DNA of 33,839 nt from Candidatus Saccharibacteria bacterium RIFCSPHIGHO2_02_FULL_47_12 (GTDB lineage: Bacteria; Patescibacteriota; Saccharimonadia; Saccharimonadales; JANWIN01), in assembly GCA_001790455.1 (NCBI GenBank), contig MGCP01000036.1:353-34191 (forward strand). Reading direction: 5' to 3'. The notes beneath the pieces are model-generated. The model made no database searches. It was not told the DNA's origin and saw nothing but the letters and a program-made list of their open reading frames with translations. Below are positions 20,608 through 33,839 of the stretch, in pieces. Each line of letters opens with the position of its first letter. Position 1 is the first letter of the stretch. The translations under genes were made by a program, and so were the position numbers.

Positions 20608-20753
20608 ACACCATAATATGGGTTGCAAACCCCTACGGGTAGAGTTATGATGGTTGCACATAACGCTATATGTAGCGATAGCCAAAAGGTTAGCACCTTT
20701 AAAACCATAAAATTTTGCGAATAGAAGTGCTAGCCCTGTAAACTATATGTAAC
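20608..20753. promoter_or_regulatory. Candidate NrdR boxes upstream of nrdR-nrdJ
   Basis: AT-centred palindromes: CCATAATATGG 20611-20621, ACATAACGCTATATGT 20658-20673 (6/8 arms pair), GTAAACTATATGTAAC 20738-20753 (overlaps a possible -10 TAAACT). They are only loosely like the published acaCwAtATaTwGtgt consensus. Confidence 0.3.
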
Positions 20754-20777: not shown

Positions 20778-21257
20778 ATGAAATGCAGCCAGTGCCAAAC
20801 CGATGACACCAAAGTCATAGAGTCGCGCGATGTAGCTGATGGCCAAGCCATTCGCCGCCGCCGGGTCTGCATGAAGTGCAATCATCGTTTTACCACCTAC
20901 GAGCGCATAGAAAAACCCCAGCTCATTGTTATAAAAAACAATGGTACGCGTGAGTTGTTTAACAGGGACAAGCTAATGGCAGGGCTTTACCGCGCCTGTG
21001 AGAAAACGCCGGTAACTAGCCTGCAGCTAGAAGAGCTGACCAATAAGATAGAGCAGGATATCTATGAGCTAGGAGAGCCAGAAGTGTCATCTTCTAAGAT
21101 TGGCCAAATAGTTATGGACCGGCTGGCCAGCTTAAACGAAGTAGCATATGTGCGATTTGCAAGCGTCTATCGTCGATTTAAAGATATTGCCGGGTTTGAG
21201 AGAGAATTATCACAGATTCGGGAGGGTAAGACAGGTAGCATTAAAGACAAGGGTTAG
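20778..21257 (+). CDS. nrdR: Transcriptional repressor NrdR
   Basis: N-terminal zinc ribbon CSQC..CMKC followed by an ATP-cone. SD AAGGAG. Confidence 0.93.
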   Translation: MKCSQCQTDDTKVIESRDVADGQAIRRRRVCMKCNHRFTTYERIEKPQLIVIKNNGTRELFNRDKLMAGLYRACEKTPVTSLQLEELTNKIEQDIYELGEPEVSSSKIGQIVMDRLASLNEVAYVRFASVYRRFKDIAGFERELSQIREGKTGSIKDKG

Positions 21258-24581: not shown

Positions 24582-27461
24582 ATGGCAGTACAGAAATCAC
24601 AATTTGCTGTCCTTGAAGAGGACATGCTAAAGATCTGGAAGAAAGAAAAAACCTTCCAGAACAGTTTAGATTTGCGAAAAGGCGCCAAACAGTTCAGCTT
24701 TTATGATGGGCCTCCGTTTGCAAATGGACTGCCACATTATGGCCATGTAGTACCCAGTACCATAAAAGACGCCATGGGACGGTACAAGACCATGCGTGGT
24801 TACTACGTACCACGAGTGGCGGGGTGGGATACTCATGGTTTGCCCGTTGAATACGAAGTAGAAAAACAGTTGGGTATATCTGGCAAAAAACAAATACTAA
24901 AACTTGGTGTAGACAAATTCAACCAAGCCTGCCGCGATTCTGTTTTTCGCTACAAGGGTGAGTTTGAAGATTTTATAAGCAGGTTAGGGAGATGGATTGA
25001 CCTAGAACACCCATACACCACGCTAGATGACAGTTACATAGAAAGTGTGTGGTGGGTTCTCAGCGAACTTCATAAAAAGGATCTGGTATACAGGAGCTTT
25101 CGCAGCATGCCTTACTGTCCGCGCTGCGCAACGCCACTGTCAAACTTTGAGCTAAACCAGGGTTACCAAGACGATGTAGAAGATCCAAGTGTCTACGTAA
25201 CGTTTCCCCTAAAGAGCGATCCAGATACGGCCTTACTGGCCTGGACAACCACCCCTTGGACTCTGTATGCCAATGAGTTACTAGCAGTCAAACCAGACGC
25301 TACCTACGCAACTGTTGAGCTTAAAAACCCGGTAGATATAAACGTCAAGCGGCTGATTTTGGCTAAGAACAGACTAAGTGAATTAGACCTACGCAAGTCA
25401 GAATATAGGGTTGTAAAGACCCAAAAGGGCCAGGAGCTAGTCGGCCAAAAATATGAGCCTTTGTACAAAGTTACAACGTTATCTGCCAAAGACCTAGAGA
25501 ACGCTTACCAGGTTTTACCAGAATCAACTGTAAGCCTAGAGGATGGCACGGGGGTATTGCACGTGGCGCCGCGTTACGGAGAAGTAGACCTAGCCCTAGG
25601 CCTAAAGCACCGTTTGCCGCTTATTAGTAGCGTAGATAATACCGGTCAAATGGTGCCCGAGCTAAACGATGTAGCGGGGCAGTTCTTTAAAGATGCGGAT
25701 CCGCATATAATTGCCCATCTTACTAAGGAAAAGAGAGTGTTTGCAGCTGAAACCATAAAGCATACCTACCCATTCTGCTGGCGGTGTGATTCCCCACTGC
25801 TGCATTACGCCACCCCTAGTTGGTTTGTGAAAGTTACAACATTTACAGATAAGCTGGTCAAAAATAATGAACAAATAAATTGGGTACCGAAACATATCAA
25901 AGCGGGTCGTTTTGGCAACTGGCTGGCCGACGCACGTGACTGGGGAATCTCTAGAAACAGATTCTGGGGAGCACCTTTGCCTATTTGGGTAAACGAAGAA
26001 GATGACACAGACATAATTGTTGTAAGTTCACTAGAAGAACTAAGCAAGCTGTCTGGGCAAGACAAGTTTGATCTACACCGCCCAGGTATAGATATGGTGA
26101 TTATTAAGAAAGACGGCAAGACCTACAAACGCGTAGAAGAAGTGTTTGATTGCTGGTTTGAATCTGGCTCTATGCCCTATGGCCAAGGACACTATCCGTT
26201 TGAAAACAAAGAAGAGTTTAACACCGGGTTTCCGGCGGACTTTATATCTGAAGGGCTAGACCAAACCAGGGGCTGGTTCTATACCTTGCATGTGCTTGCT
26301 ACTGGGTTATTTGACAAACCGGCATACAAAAACGTGGTTTGTCACGGTATTGTCCTGGCAGCAGACGGCAAAAAACTCAGCAAACGCCTGCGCAACTACC
26401 CACCATTAGAAGAGGTTTTTAACACCTACGGTGCAGACATACTGCGTTTCTTTATGCTAAACAGCCCAGTAGTGGTGGGTGAAAACGTTCGCTTTGGCGC
26501 TGACCTACTAAAAGACGTTCAGAGAAACGTATTTATGACGCTACAGAACGTACACAGATTCTTCCAAACTTATACAGGGGTAGACAAGTGGCAACCAGAA
26601 TCATTTGAGTTGCCAAACGCAACCCATGTTTTAGACAGGTGGATCTTAGCTCGACTTCAGCAGACTATAAACGAGGTCACAAAGCAGGCGGATGCCTACA
26701 GGCTAGACAAGGCTACGGATCCACTGGTGTCTTTTGTAGATGACTTGTCGAACTGGTACGTACGCCGCAGCAGGCGCCGTTTCTGGAAGAGCGAGAACGA
26801 CAGTGACAAGCTGGAGGCTTATACCACGCTCCACTACGTTTTAGTTCGCTTAACCCAGCTATTTGCACCCTGGTCACCATTTATAAGCGACCACTTATGG
26901 CGTGAACTTACAAAAGGTCTTAATCTGCCACAATCAGTACATTTGAGCGACTGGCCCAAGGAAGAAGAAGTAGATAACCATGTCATAGAACAGATGGAGC
27001 TAGCCAGGAACTATATAAACGAAGGACTTGGCCAAAGGGCTAGCGCCGGCATAAAAGTCCGCCAGCCTCTAGCTAGCCTAGAGATACCAAGGCTAGACAA
27101 GGAGTTGCAAGCAGTTATTGCCGAAGAGGTAAATGTTAAAGAGGTGGTTGCCGCTAAGGGAAGCAAGGTCGTGCTGGATATACGTCTAACAGAGGACCTG
27201 AAAGCAGAGGGCCTTATGCGCGACCTGGTGCGCCAGATTCAGGAAGCCCGCAAAAAAGCTGGCCTAGAGGTAAGCGACCGCATACACCTAGACGTCAAAT
27301 CAGACGACAAGACGGTTCAAAAAGCCCTAGACGTATTTACAGACGTAATAAAGCTGGAAACGCTAGCAGTAAGCCTCAATGAAGCCCACAAACCATCTAG
27401 CCATGAGTCCCTTGCCAAGGTTGAGGGCAAGGAAGTGGTGATTGGCCTCGCAAAGGCGTAG
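24582..27461 (+). CDS. ileS: Isoleucyl-tRNA synthetase (type 2, eukaryote-like)
   Basis: PFANGLPHYGH (HIGH), the CP1 editing domain, and KLSKRLRNYP (KMSKS). Confidence 0.95.
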   Translation: MAVQKSQFAVLEEDMLKIWKKEKTFQNSLDLRKGAKQFSFYDGPPFANGLPHYGHVVPSTIKDAMGRYKTMRGYYVPRVAGWDTHGLPVEYEVEKQLGISGKKQILKLGVDKFNQACRDSVFRYKGEFEDFISRLGRWIDLEHPYTTLDDSYIESVWWVLSELHKKDLVYRSFRSMPYCPRCATPLSNFELNQGYQDDVEDPSVYVTFPLKSDPDTALLAWTTTPWTLYANELLAVKPDATYATVELKNPVDINVKRLILAKNRLSELDLRKSEYRVVKTQKGQELVGQKYEPLYKVTTLSAKDLENAYQVLPESTVSLEDGTGVLHVAPRYGEVDLALGLKHRLPLISSVDNTGQMVPELNDVAGQFFKDADPHIIAHLTKEKRVFAAETIKHTYPFCWRCDSPLLHYATPSWFVKVTTFTDKLVKNNEQINWVPKHIKAGRFGNWLADARDWGISRNRFWGAPLPIWVNEEDDTDIIVVSSLEELSKLSGQDKFDLHRPGIDMVIIKKDGKTYKRVEEVFDCWFESGSMPYGQGHYPFENKEEFNTGFPADFISEGLDQTRGWFYTLHVLATGLFDKPAYKNVVCHGIVLAADGKKLSKRLRNYPPLEEVFNTYGADILRFFMLNSPVVVGENVRFGADLLKDVQRNVFMTLQNVHRFFQTYTGVDKWQPESFELPNATHVLDRWILARLQQTINEVTKQADAYRLDKATDPLVSFVDDLSNWYVRRSRRRFWKSENDSDKLEAYTTLHYVLVRLTQLFAPWSPFISDHLWRELTKGLNLPQSVHLSDWPKEEEVDNHVIEQMELARNYINEGLGQRASAGIKVRQPLASLEIPRLDKELQAVIAEEVNVKEVVAAKGSKVVLDIRLTEDLKAEGLMRDLVRQIQEARKKAGLEVSDRIHLDVKSDDKTVQKALDVFTDVIKLETLAVSLNEAHKPSSHESLAKVEGKEVVIGLAKA

Positions 27462-27472
27462 TATCTAAAGGA

Positions 27473-27497
27473 AAGGACGCTTGTACAAAGCGTCCTT
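27473..27497 (+). terminator. Hairpin after ileS (no U-tract)
   Basis: AAGGACGCTT-GTACA-AAGCGTCCTT, a 10-bp stem. The downstream sequence is not T-rich, so its role as a terminator or processing site is uncertain. Confidence 0.4.
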
Positions 27498-27523
27498 ATC
27501 TGTTAAACTCTTTCGGTATATTT

Positions 27524-27832
27524 ATGAAAAAAGCAGTAATTACTACCGGTGGAAAGCAGTACCTCGTGTCTGAAGGTGATGAGTTCAATGTGGAACTGAT
27601 CAGCTCAAAAGACAACAAGCTTTCTTTTGAACCTCTTCTAACCATTGACGGAGATAAAGTTACCGTTGGTAAGCCAACAGTCGATGGCTCTAAGGTTAGC
27701 GCTGAAATTATCGAAGCCCAGCTAAAGGCAGACAAAGTGACAGCTATTCGTTATAAAGCCAAAAAACGAGTAAGAAAAGTACACGGCCACAGGCAAAATC
27801 TTACCAAAATAAAAATTACTAAAATCAGCTAA
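27524..27832 (+). CDS. rplU: 50S ribosomal protein L21
   Basis: AVITTGGKQYLVSEGD N-terminus and a basic C-terminus (KKRVRKVHGHRQ). Confidence 0.92.
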   Translation: MKKAVITTGGKQYLVSEGDEFNVELISSKDNKLSFEPLLTIDGDKVTVGKPTVDGSKVSAEIIEAQLKADKVTAIRYKAKKRVRKVHGHRQNLTKIKITKIS

Positions 27833-27858
27833 CTCCATACCTGTTAGTAGCTTCATTT

Positions 27859-27913
27859 GTCACACTTTTTTGCTTTACTTGGTCACACTTCTTCGCTTGA
27901 CTTGGTCACACTT
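27859..27913 (+). repeat. Three GTCACACTT direct repeats at exact 23-bp phasing
   Basis: Copies at 27859-27867, 27882-27890 and 27905-27913. The last two extend to GCTT(T/G)ACTTGGTCACACTT. Confidence 0.85.
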
Positions 27914-27925
27914 TGAGCCGATAAT
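27897..27925 (+). promoter_or_regulatory. Promoter of the 27984 membrane-protein gene
   Basis: TTGACT, 17-nt spacer, GATAAT. The third GTCAC repeat sits in the spacer, 8 nt from the start of the -35. Confidence 0.6.
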
Positions 27926-27983
27926 GGCTCTTGAATAGCATTAGGGGTATAAAAAAGAAACCGGTAAATATACCATAAGTGAT

Positions 27984-28919
27984 ATGAAGAATCTGGCTAA
28001 AAAGTTGACTCAGCATAACAGGGATCCGTTCTATCGGGGTTATTCTTGGACAACCAAGCTTATGTGGCTTTTGCGGTATCTAGGGGGGCGGGCAACAGCG
28101 CAAATAAGGAAGCTACGATGGACTACTTTGATAACAATCCTAGCGATCCTATCTATACTACCCACCAGCATATATGCAGCTAGTATTGCCCAGGGTTATA
28201 CATCGAGCGACAAAGGGTTGCAGGTAGGCATGGCTGCCTCACTAGTAAATCCAGAATCCGGTACTACCGGTGAGGTAGAAGCGGCGACAAACAAAACCCA
28301 GGACAAGTTTGTAGGAATAGTTACAACAAAAGACACAAATTCAGTAGTTATAACTGACAAAAACCAAACGGTTTATATTACAACAGAAGGACAAACTAAG
28401 GCCCTGGTGTCTGATGTAGGGGGTTTAATCAAGCAGGGAGATCATTTAACGCTCTCACCGCTTAGAGGTTACCTCATGAAGGGTAACTCCTCTGACCTAA
28501 AAAGTGTCGCTGTAGCGCTTGAGGACTTTCCCAGTCAAAACAACACCAAGGTAGAGGTAAAGGACGTAGACAATCAAATAAAAGCTGTACAAGCAGCCTC
28601 TATGGGCGTAGAAGTACGCAGACCAGAGTTTGTAGATGTCACCTATAGCAAGCGCCCACTACTAACAAATTTTGCTCGGTCACTAACGGGTAAAGAGGTA
28701 AGCCAGTGGCAGGTAATTATAGCTCTAGTAATCTTCTTTGTACTTTTGGTAGCCATTGGTTCTGTCATATACAGCGCAGTCCACAGCACCATAGAGGCGC
28801 TAGGGCGGAACCCCTTGGCGAAAGCAGACATCTATAAAGAATTTATGCAGGTTTTGCTCATCTCTGTTGCCATATTAATTTTTGGCGGACTGATGATTTT
28901 CGTACTTTTGTGGTTATAG
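27984..28919 (+). CDS. Hypothetical membrane protein (N-terminal anchor, ~170-aa external domain, two C-terminal TM helices)
   Basis: 311 aa. Hydrophobic segments LITILAILSILPTSIYAA, VIIALVIFFVLLVAIGSVIYSAV and VLLISVAILIFGGLMIFVLLWL. No recognisable catalytic motif. Confidence 0.7.
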   Translation: MKNLAKKLTQHNRDPFYRGYSWTTKLMWLLRYLGGRATAQIRKLRWTTLITILAILSILPTSIYAASIAQGYTSSDKGLQVGMAASLVNPESGTTGEVEAATNKTQDKFVGIVTTKDTNSVVITDKNQTVYITTEGQTKALVSDVGGLIKQGDHLTLSPLRGYLMKGNSSDLKSVAVALEDFPSQNNTKVEVKDVDNQIKAVQAASMGVEVRRPEFVDVTYSKRPLLTNFARSLTGKEVSQWQVIIALVIFFVLLVAIGSVIYSAVHSTIEALGRNPLAKADIYKEFMQVLLISVAILIFGGLMIFVLLWL

Positions 28920-28944
28920 TTGGTAGTTAAGTACAAGTTGCCTG

Positions 28945-29016
28945 CAGTGTTGCAAATCATGAATGAAGAAGAGGGTGAATAACCCTATTTCGTAATGTCA
29001 AGATTTTGCAACACTG
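28945..29016. repeat. 12-bp perfect inverted repeat with a 48-nt loop
   Basis: CAGTGTTGCAAA (28945-28956) pairs with TTTGCAACACTG (29005-29016). An inner AGGGT-GAATAA-CCCT hairpin is also present. Confidence 0.6.
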
Positions 29017-29162
29017 TGGATAAGTACGGCAAAACGTCACAACAAACACCTTGAAGATAATATATTTTTTACAACGTTAAAGTACGGGAAACAGATAGGC
29101 ATAAGGGTTATTAATTTCATAAAACCAGGTATTAATTTCTAGGGTAAATTATTAGTGCAAAA

Positions 29163-29214
29163 GTCACGTTTTATATCTTGACGCTGTCACGTTTTGGGCG
29201 GATAATTGTCACAG
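29163..29214 (+). repeat. Three GTCAC direct repeats spaced 23 and 22 bp
   Basis: GTCACGTTTT at 29163-29172, GTCACGTTTT at 29186-29195 and GTCACAG at 29208-29214. Confidence 0.8.
29178..29206 (+). promoter_or_regulatory. Promoter of the giant surface-protein gene
   Basis: TTGACG, 17-nt spacer, GATAAT. A GTCAC repeat sits in the spacer at the same +8 offset as at 27897-27925. 19 of the 26 positions that follow the shared CTTGAC match between the two promoters. Confidence 0.6.
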
Positions 29215-29264
29215 TAACTGAACACAAAATTTAATAAACCAAAAATAACAAAGCTGATACAAAA

Positions 29265-32200
29265 ATGACTAAAACCTGCCAAGCCTGTAACACAGTTTTT
29301 GAAGGGCGCCGTCATGCCAAGACGTGTTCAGACAAATGCCGCAAGCGGATGCAGCGTTTGGCACAAGCGGCAGCCCAAGAGCTTGAACGGGTTGAGGTAC
29401 GTGCCGAAAATACAGTCCGCGATGTCGCCCGTGAAGTGCGGCGGGACGTGCAGACAATAGAGACTTCTTTGGGCAAAGTTGCAGGAAGCCAAGCAGGGTT
29501 TGCGGCTATAGCCGAGCCACTGGTTGCTCCTGGCGTGGCAAAGCAGGCTTATCAGACTCCGTCACAACCTAGACAGACACAGATTGCCAGTAGCCAGCCC
29601 GTAGCACAGACACCCACCATACCTAGCCCGAGCCCAGAAGCAGATGTGACACCAAACATAGTTTCTGACTTGCCGGTGGCACCGGCTCCCAAACAGTCGG
29701 TACCTCAGCCCAAACCAGTAGAACAAACCGTGCAAATTGTGCACGAGCCCATTTCGCAGCCAGCAGCAGCCCCACCACCAATAACTAACACGGCTAGGCT
29801 AGGTATAGACGTAGTACCTGCTAAACCAAACCAGCCAGTACCTGCACCACAACCCAATTCTTCATACAAATCTGTGGATCCGGATTACATACTAACTCCG
29901 GTTGATTCTAACGCTGGGGTATCAAATTTAGCTAAGCCCGCGCAAACCCAACCAAAACCACCGGTTCAGCCTGCTGTAACCCCGCTGACAGGGCAGGCAC
30001 AACCCCAATCAGTGACAATTCCCACACCCCAAATACCAGTATCGACGTCACTGCCAGAAGCCGAATCGCTAGAATCCCAAACCGTTGCCGAGCAAAAGCC
30101 AGATCAGGCCTTTGCTGGCGCTTCAAGCCAGGACAGCCAACAAAACACCTTTGCCAGCCAGTTCCAACCTCAATCACAGACAGAGGCTAAATCCAGCCAA
30201 CCAGAAGCTAGTGGGCTGGTTAAGGCAAAGAAACGTTTGTTTAAAGTAAACAAAACCTTGGTAAAACTTGCTGGGGTTGCTGCTCTGCTAACTCTTTTGG
30301 TCGGTGGATGGGGTCTGTACATAGGCGATCACACCCGACCAGATACGGGCTCTGTTACACAAAGCATACCAGAGCAAACGCTTGGTCTATCTGCCTCGGA
30401 AATAGCTCGTCTAAGCGGTGACTTTCCTTATAACCAACAACAACAACTGTTAGTCCAGGGAGACGGTATATTTACGGGCAACCTAACGGCGGCTAACTTT
30501 GTGGGCGGTGGTGCTGGTTTGACAAGCCTAAATGCCAGCAATATTTCATCTGGCACCATTAGCGCGGACCGTCTGCCAGATAACGTTACGCTGCTTGGCG
30601 ACAGTATTCCGCTTGCCAACCTGCAGGGTTCGGTCGTATCGAGCCTAAACAACGTTACCAACAATGGCGGAAACATCAATCTGGTGGCTGGCGCTAACAT
30701 TACCATAACAGCCGATGATGCCACCGACGCAATTACCATTAGCGCAGATTTGCTGGGTGGCGGCTCTAGCTTTGGCGACATTTTCAACAACGGCCAAACC
30801 GGCCCGGTTCGTATTGGTACAAACGACGCCACGAGCACCATTTTAGAAACCAATGACACAGATCGGCTAACTATAGACAGTAGTGGCACCTTTACGTTTA
30901 ACGGTAGCGCATCTAGCAACATTGTATTTGGCGGGGTAACAGTCTCTGCCGCCGAGCTAAACCTTCTAGACGGCCACGACGTAGCCCTGGTAGACGTAAA
31001 CGACGCCGTAAATACAGCCATAATTGGCACCGGCGCTCTAAACGTCGGTTCTATAACCTCTGGTTTTGGTTCCATAGACACCGGAAGCGACAACATTACT
31101 ACCACCGGAACAGTCTTTGGCAACAACTTTGACCGGTCTAGCGCCGGAGGACTAACCTTTGGTGACACAAATGCGAGCAGTGTTTCTATTTGCAACTCAG
31201 CAAGCTGCGACACCGTGACCATAGGCACCAACACCGATGCCGACATTATATCTATAGGAGACGGCAGCGATACGCTCAATTTGACTGCTGCTACCACCAC
31301 CGTTAGTGGTCACACCAGTGGTGCTGCTAACGCTTTGGTGGTTACCAACTCTACCAGTACCGGCAATATTTTGGTCCTAAATGACAATATAACTACCGTA
31401 GCTACAGTAGCCGATGGCGGTGCAGTGACCTTCCAAAACTCAGCAGACTCTGCTGCGGCATTACGGATTCTAAATGCTGCTGGCACCGGTATTATTACTG
31501 CCGACACCAGTGCCGGCACGGTAAAGCTTGGAACTTCTGGCTCCTTGACCGGTGGCCTAGTATTTCAGCACGCTGTTGGTGCAGGCAGCATAGTCTTGCT
31601 GGGGGATAACCCGGGTGCTAGCAGCTACACCATCACTCTGCCGGCAGCCACCGGATCGGTTTGTCTAACCTCTGGCAACTGTGCTGGTGTAGGTGGCACC
31701 GGCGACTTACTAAACAACGGACAGCCAGGTGCTATCAGGGTAGGCACAAATGACGCCACCAGTTTGTTCTTAGAAACCAACAACACCGATCGCTTGACCA
31801 TTACAAGTGCTGGCAACGCTACCTACGTAGGCGGCACTACTGGCGATGCTCTAACTATCTCTAACTCTACATCTACCGGCAACATCCTGGTGCTACAAGA
31901 CAACCTAACAAACGTGCTAACTATTGCCGATGGCGGTGCAGCTACCTTCCAAAACTCAGTAGACTCAACCACTGGCTTTAGGGTGCTAGATCTAGATGGC
32001 GGTAACCCTGTTCTAAACGTAGACACACTAAACGAAAGGGTTGGGATTGGCCTATCTAACCCCGGCTATGCACTTGATATAAATGGTGATCTGAACCTGC
32101 AGCTGGGCAATGCCTTTCGCATAGGTGGCACAGCTATTTGTACCAGCGGTGGTTGTGCCGCCGAGGCTGGCTCTGCCAACTACATCCAAAACAGTGCTAG

Positions 32201-33839
32201 CTTGCAGGTAGGGGGCAACTTCTATATAGAGAGCGCTTCTATAAACAGTGTGGCGGGGGCCATAAAAGGCAAAACAGGCCAAGTGTCTGATTTGTTCCAG
32301 CTAGAAGACAGTAATGGTGTAGACGTAGTGACCTTTGGTGCTACCGGAAACTTGCTGGTCAAGCCGTCTACAAACTCTGCCAGTGCATTTCAGGTTCAAG
32401 ACTCGACAGGCAACAACTATATCGCGGCAGATACATCAGGCGGCGCGGTTAACCTATGTAATTCTGCCAATTGCGACACTGTGTCCATCGGCACCAACGC
32501 CGACGCCGATGCCATTAACATAGGCGACAGCCTAGACACCCTTACTCTCACTGGCAGCAGTGCCAGCACTATAGTCCTAAATGGCATAACCGTCTCTGCC
32601 GCCGAGCTAAACCTTCTAGACGGCCACGACGTAGCCCTGGTAGACATAAACGACGCCGTAAATACAGCCATAATTGGCACTGGTGCCCTAAACGTCGGTT
32701 CTATAACCTCTGGTTTTGGTTCCATAGACACCGGAAGCGACAACATCACCACCACCGGCACAGTCTATGGCAACAACTTTGACCGATCTAGTGTTGGAGG
32801 ACTAACCTTAGGTACCACAAATGCCAATGCGGTAACGGTTAGCAATAGTGGAGCCACAACCACTATCAATGGTGCCTCGGTTTCTATATCCAGTAGTGGC
32901 TTTCTTGCCTCTACTACTATTACGGGCGCGCTAACTCTAAATCTTGGTAATGCGACAACGACGGTTATTAATCAACGGTCGTCTGGAGGTGGCGTTATTG
33001 GTATTGGCGACAACGCTGTAGCTAATACCATCTATATCGGCGCCAACGGTGTCAACACAGGCAATACTCAGACAATTTTACTTGGTGCTCTCGGTGCGGC
33101 TGGCACTACCAACGTCACTATCGGTAGTAACAACAACGCCACAGCAGGTACTACTACCATCCAATCAAAAGGCACACTGGCAGTTGGGAATACTATTTCA
33201 CCCACCATCAACATCCAGGGTGGCGCAGCTGGCACCATTGGCATTGGTAATAATGCTGTAGCCAATACCATCCAAATTGGCGCCACCTCTACCGGTGGCA
33301 ATACGCAAACAGTCAACATTGGCACCAACAACGCCGCCGGCACTACCAATGTCACAATTGGCACAGGATCATCCGCCACCGCCGGTACCACTACCATCCA
33401 ATCAAAAGGTGCTCTGGCGCTCGGTAATAGTATCAGCTCATCTATCGCTATCCAGGGTACTGTAGACGGTGGTGGCATAAGTATTGGCACCTCTAATACA
33501 ACCGCCGGCATTGCGCTTGGTGGTAGCACCCAAACAGGTACGATTACCATTGGGCAGTCACTGGTTACGAATACCATTAATATTGGTGCTGCTGGGTCCA
33601 GTTTTGGTACGCAGACTATCAATATTGGCAATACTTCTAATGGGGGCGCTATTGTAAACACAACTTTAGGATACGCGGGCGCCAATAGCACGTCCCCAAC
33701 TGCTTCGGCAACAGTTATCCAATCAGGGAGTGGCAATATCAAACTCAATGCCAATGGTGGTAGTGTGCTGGTTCAAAATTCTACCAACAGCAATACTGCG
33801 TTTATGATCCAGAACGCCAATGCTAGCAATACCATATTC
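29265..33839 (+). CDS. Giant repetitive cell-surface protein, 3'-truncated by the window end (at least 1525 codons)
   Basis: I translated it by hand in the frame of ATG 29265. An in-frame TAA lies at 29235, and I found no stop through 33839. MTKTCQACNTVFEGRRHAKTCSDKCRKRMQR is a Cys4 motif. It is followed by ~240 aa rich in P/Q, then KKRLFKVNKTLVK plus the TM helix LAGVAALLTLLVGGWGLYIG (~30267-30326), then G/T/N/S/A-rich repeat modules. The ORF is absent from the track, presumably because it has no stop in the window. Confidence 0.9.
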   Translation, partial: MTKTCQACNTVFEGRRHAKTCSDKCRKRMQRLAQAAAQELERVEVRAENTVRDVAREVRRDVQTIETSLGKVAGSQAGFAAIAEPLVAPGVAKQAYQTPSQPRQTQIASSQPVAQTPTIPSPSPEADVTPNIVSDLPVAPAPKQSVPQPKPVEQTVQIVHEPISQPAAAPPPITNTARLGIDVVPAKPNQPVPAPQPNSSYKSVDPDYILTPVDSNAGVSNLAKPAQTQPKPPVQPAVTPLTGQAQPQSVTIPTPQIPVSTSLPEAESLESQTVAEQKPDQAFAGASSQDSQQNTFASQFQPQSQTEAKSSQPEASGLVKAKKRLFKVNKTLVKLAGVAALLTLLVGGWGLYIGDHTRPDTGSVTQSIPEQTLGLSASEIARLSGDFPYNQQQQLLVQGDGIFTGNLTAANFVGGGAGLTSLNASNISSGTISADRLPDNVTLLGDSIPLANLQGSVVSSLNNVTNNGGNINLVAGANITITADDATDAITISADLLGGGSSFGDIFNNGQTGPVRIGTNDATSTILETNDTDRLTIDSSGTFTFNGSASSNIVFGGVTVSAAELNLLDGHDVALVDVNDAVNTAIIGTGALNVGSITSGFGSIDTGSDNITTTGTVFGNNFDRSSAGGLTFGDTNASSVSICNSASCDTVTIGTNTDADIISIGDGSDTLNLTAATTTVSGHTSGAANALVVTNSTSTGNILVLNDNITTVATVADGGAVTFQNSADSAAALRILNAAGTGIITADTSAGTVKLGTSGSLTGGLVFQHAVGAGSIVLLGDNPGASSYTITLPAATGSVCLTSGNCAGVGGTGDLLNNGQPGAIRVGTNDATSLFLETNNTDRLTITSAGNATYVGGTTGDALTISNSTSTGNILVLQDNLTNVLTIADGGAATFQNSVDSTTGFRVLDLDGGNPVLNVDTLNERVGIGLSNPGYALDINGDLNLQLGNAFRIGGTAICTSGGCAAEAGSANYIQNSASLQVGGNFYIESASINSVAGAIKGKTGQVSDLFQLEDSNGVDVVTFGATGNLLVKPSTNSASAFQVQDSTGNNYIAADTSGGAVNLCNSANCDTVSIGTNADADAINIGDSLDTLTLTGSSASTIVLNGITVSAAELNLLDGHDVALVDINDAVNTAIIGTGALNVGSITSGFGSIDTGSDNITTTGTVYGNNFDRSSVGGLTLGTTNANAVTVSNSGATTTINGASVSISSSGFLASTTITGALTLNLGNATTTVINQRSSGGGVIGIGDNAVANTIYIGANGVNTGNTQTILLGALGAAGTTNVTIGSNNNATAGTTTIQSKGTLAVGNTISPTINIQGGAAGTIGIGNNAVANTIQIGATSTGGNTQTVNIGTNNAAGTTNVTIGTGSSATAGTTTIQSKGALALGNSISSSIAIQGTVDGGGISIGTSNTTAGIALGGSTQTGTITIGQSLVTNTINIGAAGSSFGTQTINIGNTSNGGAIVNTTLGYAGANSTSPTASATVIQSGSGNIKLNANGGSVLVQNSTNSNTAFMIQNANASNTIF
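30942..31174 (+). repeat. Intragenic repeat A1 (VSAAELNLLDGHDVALVD.NDAVNTAIIGTGALNVGSITSGFGSIDTGSDNITTTG..)
   Basis: ~93% nt identity to 32592-32824, including identical runs of 54, 34 and 59 bp. The offset is exactly 1650 bp (550 codons). Confidence 0.9.
32592..32824 (+). repeat. Intragenic repeat A2
   Basis: Partner of 30942-31174. Confidence 0.9.
33000..33479 (+). repeat. Tandem ~237-240-bp (79-80 aa) repeat units, with a third degenerate unit to ~33750
   Basis: Unit starts are GGTATTGGCGACAACGCTGTAGCTAATACCATC (33000) and GGCATTGGTAATAATGCTGTAGCCAATACCATC (33240). A shared 20-mer ACTACCATCCAATCAAAAGG occurs at 33153 and 33390. Confidence 0.85.

Follow-up and report, generated by a model that had tools for sequence, protein, structure and literature searches.

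In the iteron replicons P1, F, pSC101, and RK2, a DnaA box and an AT-rich stretch accompany repeats with a period of approximately 22 bp that overlap the promoter of the adjacent gene. At P1 repA/incC, pSC101 repA, and F repE, direct repeats of approximately 22–23 bp overlap the −35 and −10 elements of the downstream gene, and such promoters are repressed by their own product, a winged-helix initiator. Short direct repeats, spaced at 21–22 bp from centre to centre, are also found beside the promoters controlled by LytTR-type regulators including AgrA, ComE, and PlnC, where they sit upstream of the −35 element and activate weak promoters. NrdR boxes, read by a zinc-ribbon protein, are tandem phased sites overlapping promoters and consist of 16-bp palindromes in pairs. 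Furthermore, ToxR, CadC, and TcpP each carry a nucleic-acid-binding module at the cytoplasmic N-terminus, followed by a single membrane helix and an extracytoplasmic part; proteins of this type act on promoters with direct repeats and mostly activate them. Saccharibacteria and other ultra-small episymbionts possess very few recognisable transcription factors, and their giant surface proteins are prominent candidates for a role in attachment to hosts. To our knowledge, almost nothing is known about gene regulation in these organisms. The present analysis is focused on an array of GTCAC boxes upstream of a giant surface protein gene in Candidatus Saccharibacteria bacterium RIFCSPHIGHO2_02_FULL_47_12, within a stretch of 33,839 nucleotides (hereafter, the window). 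Judged from sequence comparison, the array is genuine: it is a cis-regulatory element with deep conservation and belongs to a promoter class specific to zinc-finger-headed giant surface genes. The preferred explanation, to which a probability of approximately 0.5 is assigned, is that the boxes are operators within a strong sigma-70-type promoter, that their effect is repression, and that the zinc-finger head of the giant protein is their likeliest reader.

The genome comprises 0.66 Mb with 46% GC and is 86% complete, and the gene order in the window is nrdR, nrdJ, an 88-residue gene, ileS, rplU, the gene of a 311-residue membrane protein, and the giant gene. Re-reading of the sequence locates the three GTCAC copies upstream of the giant gene exactly where the initial annotation had placed them, 23 bp and a further 22 bp apart, and agrees with its call of TTGACG and GATAAT hexamers separated by 17 bp (Table 1). 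The middle copy starts 8 bp past the start of the −35 element, the same offset as in the sister promoter of the 311-residue gene. In a consensus scan, these two promoters are the top two sigma-70-like sites in 27400–29400, each with 10 of 12 matches, and TTGACG-17-GATAAT conforms to the sigma-70 type (TTGACA-like and TATAAT-like hexamers, 16–18 bp apart). With a transcription start at approximately 29213, a position deduced from the −10 element alone (about 7 nt downstream), the GTCAC of the third copy would span −5 to −1. The boxes are non-palindromic direct repeats, and their period of 23 bp corresponds to 2.2 helical turns, which is not an exact same-face arrangement. A palindromic reading, TGAC-N3-GTCA together with the −35 element, was rejected because variant lineages alter both direct boxes and leave the −35 element unchanged. 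Pairs of GTCAC-N17-19-GTCAC occur four times in the window versus 0.02 expected, approximately 200 times chance, and none of 100 shuffles reached four; in the whole 661,502-bp, 48-contig assembly, triple arrays are confined to this site and to 27859–27909. No Rfam RNA family was found in 27400–29400 at E up to 1, that is, no known riboswitch, leader, or small RNA.

Table 1. Features of the two promoters and of the giant gene (window coordinates; positions relative to transcription refer to the start deduced from the −10 element)
Feature	Position	Strand	Remarks
Extra box GTCACACTTT	27859–27868	+	Sister promoter; young 23-bp tandem duplication
Sister promoter core	27882–27925	+	Box 27882, TTGACT 27897, box 27905, GATAAT 27920; precedes the gene (27984–28919) of the 311-residue membrane protein
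DnaA box, TGTGGATAA on the + strand (= TTATCCACA)	29016–29024	−	Perfect; approximately 160 bp upstream of the −35 element; invariant in five close species; DnaA binding predicted
Box 1, GTCACGTTTT	29163–29172	+	15 bp upstream of the −35 element, about −50 to −41; kept in 4/5 close species
−35 element, TTGACG	29178–29183	+	Preceded by C (CTTGAC); CTTGAC or TTGAC in 27/27 tabulated head-gene promoters
Box 2, GTCACGTTTT	29186–29195	+	Inside the 17-bp spacer, about −27 to −18; GTCAC invariant in 5/5 close species
−10 element, GATAAT	29201–29206	+	Invariant in five close species
Box 3, GTCACAG	29208–29214	+	One base past the −10 element, about −5 to +2; invariant in five close species
Leader box, CTGAACACAAAATTTA	29218–29233	+	Presumed 5′ untranslated region; conserved
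Cys4 zinc-finger head, residues 1–35	29265–29369	+	Candidate reader of the boxes
Giant surface protein gene	29265–33839	+	Continues past the end of the window; the protein has 4,782 residues in other assemblies of this species

A set of close relatives was assembled by protein search and contig look-up and comprises five species, counting that of the window. The four further species share the conserved chromosomal synteny nrdJ-ileS-rplU-311aa-giant, and their 311-residue proteins are 72, 70, 57, and 50% identical (L037, L033, L051, and L049, respectively). The initial annotation had proposed that the conservation of the repeats be compared with that of the flanking intergenic DNA, and the comparison strongly favours the repeats: 40 of 55 positions are invariant in the five species over the array and promoter (29160–29214), versus 33 of 134 in the middle part of the giant-gene spacer and 4 of 93 in the region preceding it. 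Invariance is complete (100%) in the −10 element and in boxes 2 and 3. All three boxes and both hexamers are present at unchanged spacing in L033, L037, and L049; in L051, boxes 2 and 3 are kept, box 1 is lost, and an extra copy has been gained 11 bp past box 3. The change in L037 is concerted, GTCACATTTT replacing GTCACGTTTT in both boxes. Among 10 assemblies of the same species, the rplU–311aa spacer is identical in all, and three differ at a few single bases in the giant-gene spacer, always outside the array.

The two promoters in the window are paralogous, as initially annotated, and match at 32 of 50 positions when the entire core, first shared box through −10 element, is compared, although a recount of the 26 positions past the shared CTTGAC gives 18 matches and not the 19 claimed. 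Both share an ancestral two-box core, with boxes centred near −48 and −25 and the second inside the 17-bp spacer. The unit that carries the extra box of the sister promoter (27856–27878) is identical to the next unit (27879–27901) at 19 of 23 positions, including TTTAC where the −35 element has TTGAC, and this box is therefore regarded as a young, species-specific tandem duplication. It is missing from the sister promoters of all four related species: those of L033 and L037 have just two boxes, at −15 and +8 from the −35 element, that of L049 retains one, and that of L051 has degenerate ones. The description of the giant-gene array as shifted one unit downstream of its sister is thus correct for this genome; read by alignment, the shift is the sum of one old box gained or kept at the giant promoter and one young box gained at the sister. 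Provided that the head is the reader of the boxes, a copy of the promoter would have brought the neighbouring membrane-protein gene under the same control in this clade. Relatives of the 311-residue gene across the order (29 loci, 25–39% identity) have no array, and a search of metagenome contigs for loci related to its protein found nothing. Occurrences of GTCAC near −100 to −180 in three of the loci (L008, L010, and L022) are artefacts inside the rplU coding sequence, where GHRQ is encoded. A sigma-28 reading of GCCGATAA at 27918–27925 was likewise rejected, as TAAA is not present at the required distance.

The promoter class extends well beyond this clade. Its layout, CTTGAC with one box at −15 and another at +8 from the −35 element, a 17-bp spacer before the −10 hexamer, and often a third box directly past that hexamer, is found upstream of approximately 27 genes in several families of the order, all of which begin with one Cys4 zinc-finger head. 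A profile search for this finger in 301 genomes of the order was positive in approximately 17 genomes from five families (roughly 6%), in which the head forms either the N-terminus of open reading frames (ORFs) of up to 7,644 residues or ORFs of 55–92 residues. The 27 tabulated upstream regions all contain (C)TTGAC, with a spacer of 17 bp, rarely 16 or 18, and −10 hexamers that mostly match TATAAT at four to six of six positions; nearly every copy combines these elements with GTCAC-like pentamers at −15/−16 and +8. In 23 dereplicated promoters, exact GTCAC occupies the −15/−16 slot in 10, the +8 slot in 13, and the slot past the −10 hexamer in five, the chance being about 0.5–0.6% per slot. 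The third copy, over the likely start deduced above, proves to be an old conserved feature, being present in the five clade species and in two other families (L079, L084, and L103); it occurs as TTCACAG in L107, from another family of the order. Several lineages have changed their boxes in pairs: with the −35 element still TTGAC, GTTAC occurs twice in L088 and GGGAC twice in L089, and the 10-mer GTCACATTTT is found twice in L037 and in L105 and the 11-mer GTCACAGTTTT twice in L106. Such concerted changes argue that the boxes are direct repeats read by one factor and are not products of chance or parts of a palindrome.

The specificity of the class was evaluated by genome-wide scans. A weight matrix built from 22 promoters, all from other genomes, was scanned over the whole assembly and scored the giant promoter at 46.4 bits and the sister at 30.5 bits, second best in the genome, versus 16.9 bits for the next site elsewhere; the window thus holds the only two members of the class in this genome. 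An exact-pattern scan for GTCACNNTTNNNNNCTTGACNNNGTCAC in a metagenome collection of 241 million records gave 19 matches, and all five with the complete layout, including GGATAAT, lie directly upstream of a finger-headed gene; in three of these five loci, a 66-residue ORF of its own encodes the finger and overlaps the start of the giant ORF. In 185,579 species genomes, a collection possibly not including the lineage of the window, an 18-base pattern gave six matches in unrelated phyla, which is the chance level. The 11-base core CTTGAC-N3-GTCAC is present in 82 of 301 genomes, a frequency close to that of a reversed control, and is not specific alone. The core loci inspected in head-less genomes lack a −10 hexamer or an upstream box in 28 of 29 cases, the exception (L139) having only TATCAT as its −10 hexamer, and most core-only loci in such genomes fall within coding sequence. 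Hence, specificity belongs to the full layout and not to the 11-base core alone. A full-text literature search found no description of the promoter, the boxes, or the finger.

Several features of the array would be compatible with promoter architecture that requires no dedicated regulator. The 23-bp period is the same as the −35 to −10 distance, which puts each box 15 bp ahead of a hexamer; the T-tracts near −45 resemble UP elements; and the unit at 27859, complete with a −35-like TTTAC, demonstrates that 23-bp units duplicate as a whole. The units of GTCAC and T-tract could then be intrinsic features (an UP-like element plus a spacer element) or traces of 23-bp duplications, inherited along with a strong promoter that stays attached to the 5′ ends of the head genes, and their conservation could reflect selection for very high expression. 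This explanation is quite unlikely. No other promoter in the genome has the box elements, which are therefore not general polymerase signals; the five lineages with paired changes have altered the pentamer or its tail identically in both boxes with the hexamers fixed, which is hard to account for without a common reader; and box 3, past the −10 element where no polymerase-contact role is known, is nevertheless invariant in five species. The boxes are very probably protein-binding sites.

The protein encoded downstream has an unusual composition. The head (residues 1–35) is followed by a charged helix, about 250 P/Q-rich residues, a basic patch (KAKKRLFKVNK), one hydrophobic helix at approximately 350–385, and a repetitive ectodomain, and the positive-inside rule predicts the head to be cytoplasmic. 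This arrangement resembles that of ToxR, CadC, and TcpP in its predicted N-terminal cytoplasmic nucleic-acid-binding module, single membrane helix, and extracytoplasmic part, and in its proposed action on a promoter with direct repeats. Unlike ToxR and CadC, the giant protein has no OmpR-type winged helix that could be found in Pfam or NCBIfam searches; the model instead has a Cys4 knuckle and basic helix of approximately 35 residues, and the protein has a disordered linker of approximately 300 residues and an outside fibre of approximately 4,400 residues. A further difference is that ToxR-type proteins mostly activate, whereas repression is suggested here, and that the head is a free small protein in some lineages. 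The finger is strongly basic and has the motif C-x2-C-x5-GR-x3-KTCS-x2-CRK-x3-R with 12 invariant positions; in the structural model, a zinc knuckle is followed by a long basic helix, with a pLDDT of 94–96 over residues 1–40. No significant match to the head was found in Pfam, NCBIfam, or the PDB, and the best fold matches of the model are weak (Foldseek, E of 0.7 or more, about 1) and of the treble-clef, TRASH, FCS, and CGNR kinds, including the protein-binding finger YacG and the RNA-binding fingers L24e and FCS. Among phage families, the head matches phrog_6975 (function unannotated, 1.3e-7), phrog_15471 (3e-6) and phrog_1271 (1e-5), annotated as HNH endonuclease, and, more weakly, phrog_8643 (E 0.008), annotated as DNA polymerase/primase. 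These phage proteins have the same C-x2-C ... CS-x2-CR finger, and by analogy its fusion to phage DNA-acting enzymes suggests a DNA-binding accessory module, although the phage finger is attached to enzymes whereas that described here heads a surface protein or stands alone. The head appears to work as an independent module, because in at least four lineages (L073, L105, L106, and L107) it is encoded by a free, translationally coupled ORF of 55–72 residues that overlaps the start of the large ORF. A zinc-binding anti-sigma domain was considered and rejected: the HxxxCxxC four-helix domain and an adjacent ECF sigma gene are lacking, and the promoter is of the sigma-70 type. Tandem heads occur in L086 and were considered as a match for boxes 11 bp apart; this correspondence was dropped, having been seen once and not repeated in L104.

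The head is the foremost candidate for the reader of the boxes, and the odds that it plays this role are put slightly below even. It is the sole feature common to all tabulated downstream genes, and exact GTCAC boxes accompany 14 of 15 heads of the KTCS..CRK form versus 2 of 8 variant heads (Fisher p = 0.002, with no correction for phylogeny). Promoter and head go together largely through common descent, and their association is therefore no proof that one reads the other. Strict co-evolution of head and operator does not fit, because two genes of genome G295 with identical heads have differing box sequences (L085 and L102), and the 311-residue gene has a promoter of the class and no head. Both of these observations would suit a separate, trans-acting regulator, for example a short NrdR-like zinc-ribbon protein encoded on contig C4 or a factor missing from the assembly; in a genome that is 86% complete, a trans-acting regulator could be out of view. 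Regulators often bind near their own genes, and the only other close GTCACR.TTT pair in the genome lies at 3231–3258 of contig C4, approximately 215 bp upstream of a divergent short NrdR-family gene (3473–3880; PF22811 at 1.8e-11). That site, however, looks like a decayed copy, as its −35 element is lost through a 4-bp gap, its −10 element is displaced, and it faces a convergent terminator; furthermore, short NrdR-like proteins occur widely in the order (170 relatives, many named Saccharimonadales), whereas the promoter class occurs in only approximately 6% of genomes. The array shares with NrdR boxes a tandem phased arrangement overlapping promoters, and two NrdR-family genes are present in this genome, but canonical NrdR boxes are 16-bp palindromes and such a palindrome sits upstream of nrdR (20664–20677), whereas the GTCAC boxes lack palindromic symmetry and are absent from nrd genes. 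Other families of regulators fare no better. LytTR-type sites are similar in repeat spacing and differ in their position and in activating weak promoters, and no match to the LytTR domain PF04397 was found in this 86%-complete genome; in its four receiver proteins, which are stand-alone or have low-complexity tails, no DNA-binding output domain was recognised on reading the sequences. The usual readers of direct repeats are thereby removed from consideration, which also counts against a separate reader. A separate regulator is thus a serious but unlikely alternative, and the head is retained as the preferred reader.

Provided that the boxes are bound, the effect of occupancy is probably repression. 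With 10 of 12 hexamer positions matching at the optimal 17-bp spacing, neither promoter should need an activator, and near-consensus hexamers together with boxes in the spacer (−27) and over the deduced start (−5) point to repression at both. The initial annotation had suggested that the same factor might repress the giant promoter, where a box covers the start, and activate the upstream promoter, where the boxes lie further upstream. Dual regulators with position-dependent effects are well known, and the arrays do differ in the required manner, since that of the sister promoter reaches about −73 without a box at the start and that of the giant promoter has a box at −5 to −1, given the deduced start. 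The contrast is unsupported, however: the box at −73 is absent in four of four related species, which places this young duplication outside the conserved design, and both promoters share a box in the spacer, a position at which a site is normally repressive. Opposite outcomes at the two promoters are therefore very improbable. Under the preferred reading, repression at both, a quantitative difference is plausible, the giant gene being shut off more tightly than the 311-residue gene because the sister promoter has no box at the start.

Further conserved elements accompany the array. Of 28 head-gene loci, 17 have a perfect DnaA 9-mer 190–300 bp ahead of the start codon, the chance being about 0.005 per locus; one further locus has a perfect 9-mer at −552 and four have one with a single mismatch. 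Downstream, 16 of 22 positions in 29215–29236 are invariant in the five species, and a GAACA(C)AAAA(A)TT box approximately 20 nt past the −10 hexamer recurs in most head-gene promoters; in many lineages, ACACCTTA is likewise conserved immediately ahead of box 1. A DnaA box, an AT-rich spacer, and 22–23-bp direct repeats over the adjacent promoter constitute a layout resembling that of iteron replicons, and the proposed reading of the repeats by the downstream product, with negative autoregulation, is a further likeness. Nevertheless, an iteron-type replication origin or partition site is exceedingly unlikely. There are just two or three repeats and a single DnaA box in place of at least three to four iterons; no Rep-like gene is adjacent, the downstream gene encoding a giant membrane-anchored surface fibre with a Cys4 finger and not a winged-helix initiator; and the module lies in conserved chromosomal synteny and occurs up to five times per genome (in G234), in contrast to one functional copy per replicon. 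The genome has 10 perfect DnaA boxes, including that at 29016–29024, and the chromosomal dnaA gene and a cluster of DnaA boxes sit on another contig (C32), so the present site is not the chromosomal origin either. Within the preferred reading, the isolated DnaA box, approximately 160 bp upstream and part of the same conserved module, may add an input from DnaA.

The proposed mechanism can be outlined as follows. A sequence-specific DNA-binding protein would occupy the GTCAC boxes within the strong CTTGAC-17-GATAAT promoter, thereby blocking RNA polymerase and repressing transcription. Promoters of this class would drive genes whose products carry a small cytoplasmic Cys4 head, which a long disordered linker and a single membrane helix usually connect to a giant extracellular fibre. 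Binding of its own promoter by the head of the giant protein would result in negative autoregulation, and the neighbouring membrane-protein gene would fall under the same control through its copy of the promoter. A bolder and more tentative proposal is that the fibre is its own transcription factor: the head, on its 300-residue tether or free, would bind the boxes at its own and at the partner promoter, such that the amount or state of the fibre in the envelope would feed back directly on transcription, and the DnaA box would couple this circuit to the replication cycle. If true, this would establish a new class of autoregulator, membrane-tethered and based on a zinc finger, that is conserved in several families of the order.

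For organisms with so few recognisable transcription factors, the array provides a concrete and testable cis-regulatory module, in which a DnaA box precedes a consensus promoter with two or three GTCAC boxes and a conserved leader box follows it; the module is specific to giant head genes and conserved across several families. A candidate reader can be named, an 86-residue peptide that is purifiable; if the head does read the boxes, both the zinc finger as a DNA-binding module and this form of membrane-tethered autoregulation, which would link transcription to the cell surface, would be new. Otherwise, the boxes would still serve as bait for finding the regulator. Furthermore, the boxes and promoter offer a portable, probably strong, regulated promoter for the emerging genetics of Saccharibacteria-like organisms.

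At the promoter of the 311-residue membrane protein gene (window 27859-27925), sister to that of the giant surface-fibre gene (29265 onward), two adjoining 23-bp units (27856-27901) are identical at 19 of 23 positions, TTTAC/TTGAC included, and this identity indicates that a whole promoter unit was recently duplicated in tandem. Four related species lack the extra copy. Many promoters of head genes, i.e., genes that start with the Cys4 zinc finger (head) of the giant protein, carry an additional conserved element in front of the first GTCAC box (see table). The giant-gene promoter of the window is without this element and has an 11-nt gap there relative to three related species of the same synteny (L033, L037, and L049).

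The giant gene is preceded by an isolated, perfect DnaA box, and a perfect box is found at the matching relative position, 190-300 bp upstream, in 17 of the 28 zinc-finger-head loci across the order. Contig C32 carries chromosomal dnaA and its cluster of DnaA boxes. A 12-bp inverted repeat was also observed (arms 28945-28956 and 29005-29016, within 28920-29012), the right arm of which extends by one base (29016) into the DnaA box. The repeat probably terminates the transcript of the 311-residue gene, and the stretch of ~77 bp that holds it is restricted to this species.

A third GTCAC site of the genome, on contig C4, resembles a promoter copy that has decayed, with 4 bp lost from the -35 element and a displaced -10 element. 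It is flanked by the terminator of a putative ORF of 37 residues and by a short NrdR-like gene (C4 3473-3880), apart from which the surrounding ~900 bp are mostly non-coding; a further GTCACGGATT is located ~80 bp 5' of the latter gene. The genome holds, on C4, a second and shorter NrdR-family gene. Upstream of nrdR itself (20778-21257), a palindrome and a second CTATATGTA resemble NrdR boxes and, if this reading holds, would imply autoregulation of nrdR. In the whole genome, receiver domains of response regulators are present in four proteins (C38 3054-4187, C37 10337-10912, C37 15918-16301, and C11, minus strand), one of which has a P/Q/T-rich tail of ~250 residues; on reading of the sequences, no DNA-binding output domain was recognizable in any of the four.

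Features discussed in the text (window coordinates unless a contig or locus is named)
Feature	Position	Remarks
Perfect DnaA box, isolated, TGTGGATAA	29016-29024	~250 bp 5' of giant-gene start codon
Additional conserved element, ACACCTTA or CTCCTTA	immediately 5' of box 1, 17-24 bp upstream of -35	many head-gene promoters (L081, L083, L085, L087, L088, L101, L104, and others)
Upstream element, window copy, ACCTGTTA	27845-27852	
Third GTCAC site, GGTCACGGTTTGGGCTCTTGGTCACGTTTTGCGACACACTTTTATAAT	C4 3231-3258	minus strand; locus L052 ~932-959
Palindrome, CGCTATATGTAGCG	20664-20677	upstream of nrdR
Second CTATATGTA	20743-20751	upstream of nrdR
Separate head ORFs	L073 3657-3857; L105 1483-1668; L106 1486-1704; L107 1492-1659	oriented coordinates
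Tandem heads in single ORF	L086 (G234:C2 1-255); L104 (G234:C1 741977-742381)	
Break in giant gene	33808-33839 and beyond (C36 34160-34254)	

The head is fused in some lineages and split in others. In at least four lineages it is a standalone ORF of 55-72 residues, the stop codon of which overlaps (ATGA type) the start codon of the big ORF, and the big ORF encodes the linker and membrane helix. Two loci have a pair of heads in tandem; at one of them, L086, where three GTCAC boxes with 11-bp spacing lie upstream of the -35 element, a repeat-induced assembly artefact is possible because the locus sits at a contig end.

The giant gene is split in this assembly into frames of 1,555 and 3,201 codons that overlap by ~95 bp. 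A single 4,782-residue product in other assemblies of this species means that the break is a frameshift or an assembly error. The gene order rplU to 311-residue gene (27984-28919) is kept in several families. Within the 311-residue protein, residues 61-188 are similar to a stretch close to the giant protein's C-terminus (C36 42890-43273; 28% identity, E 1e-4), as well as to giant-ORF segments in three other genomes; a domain is therefore common to the two presumably co-regulated genes.
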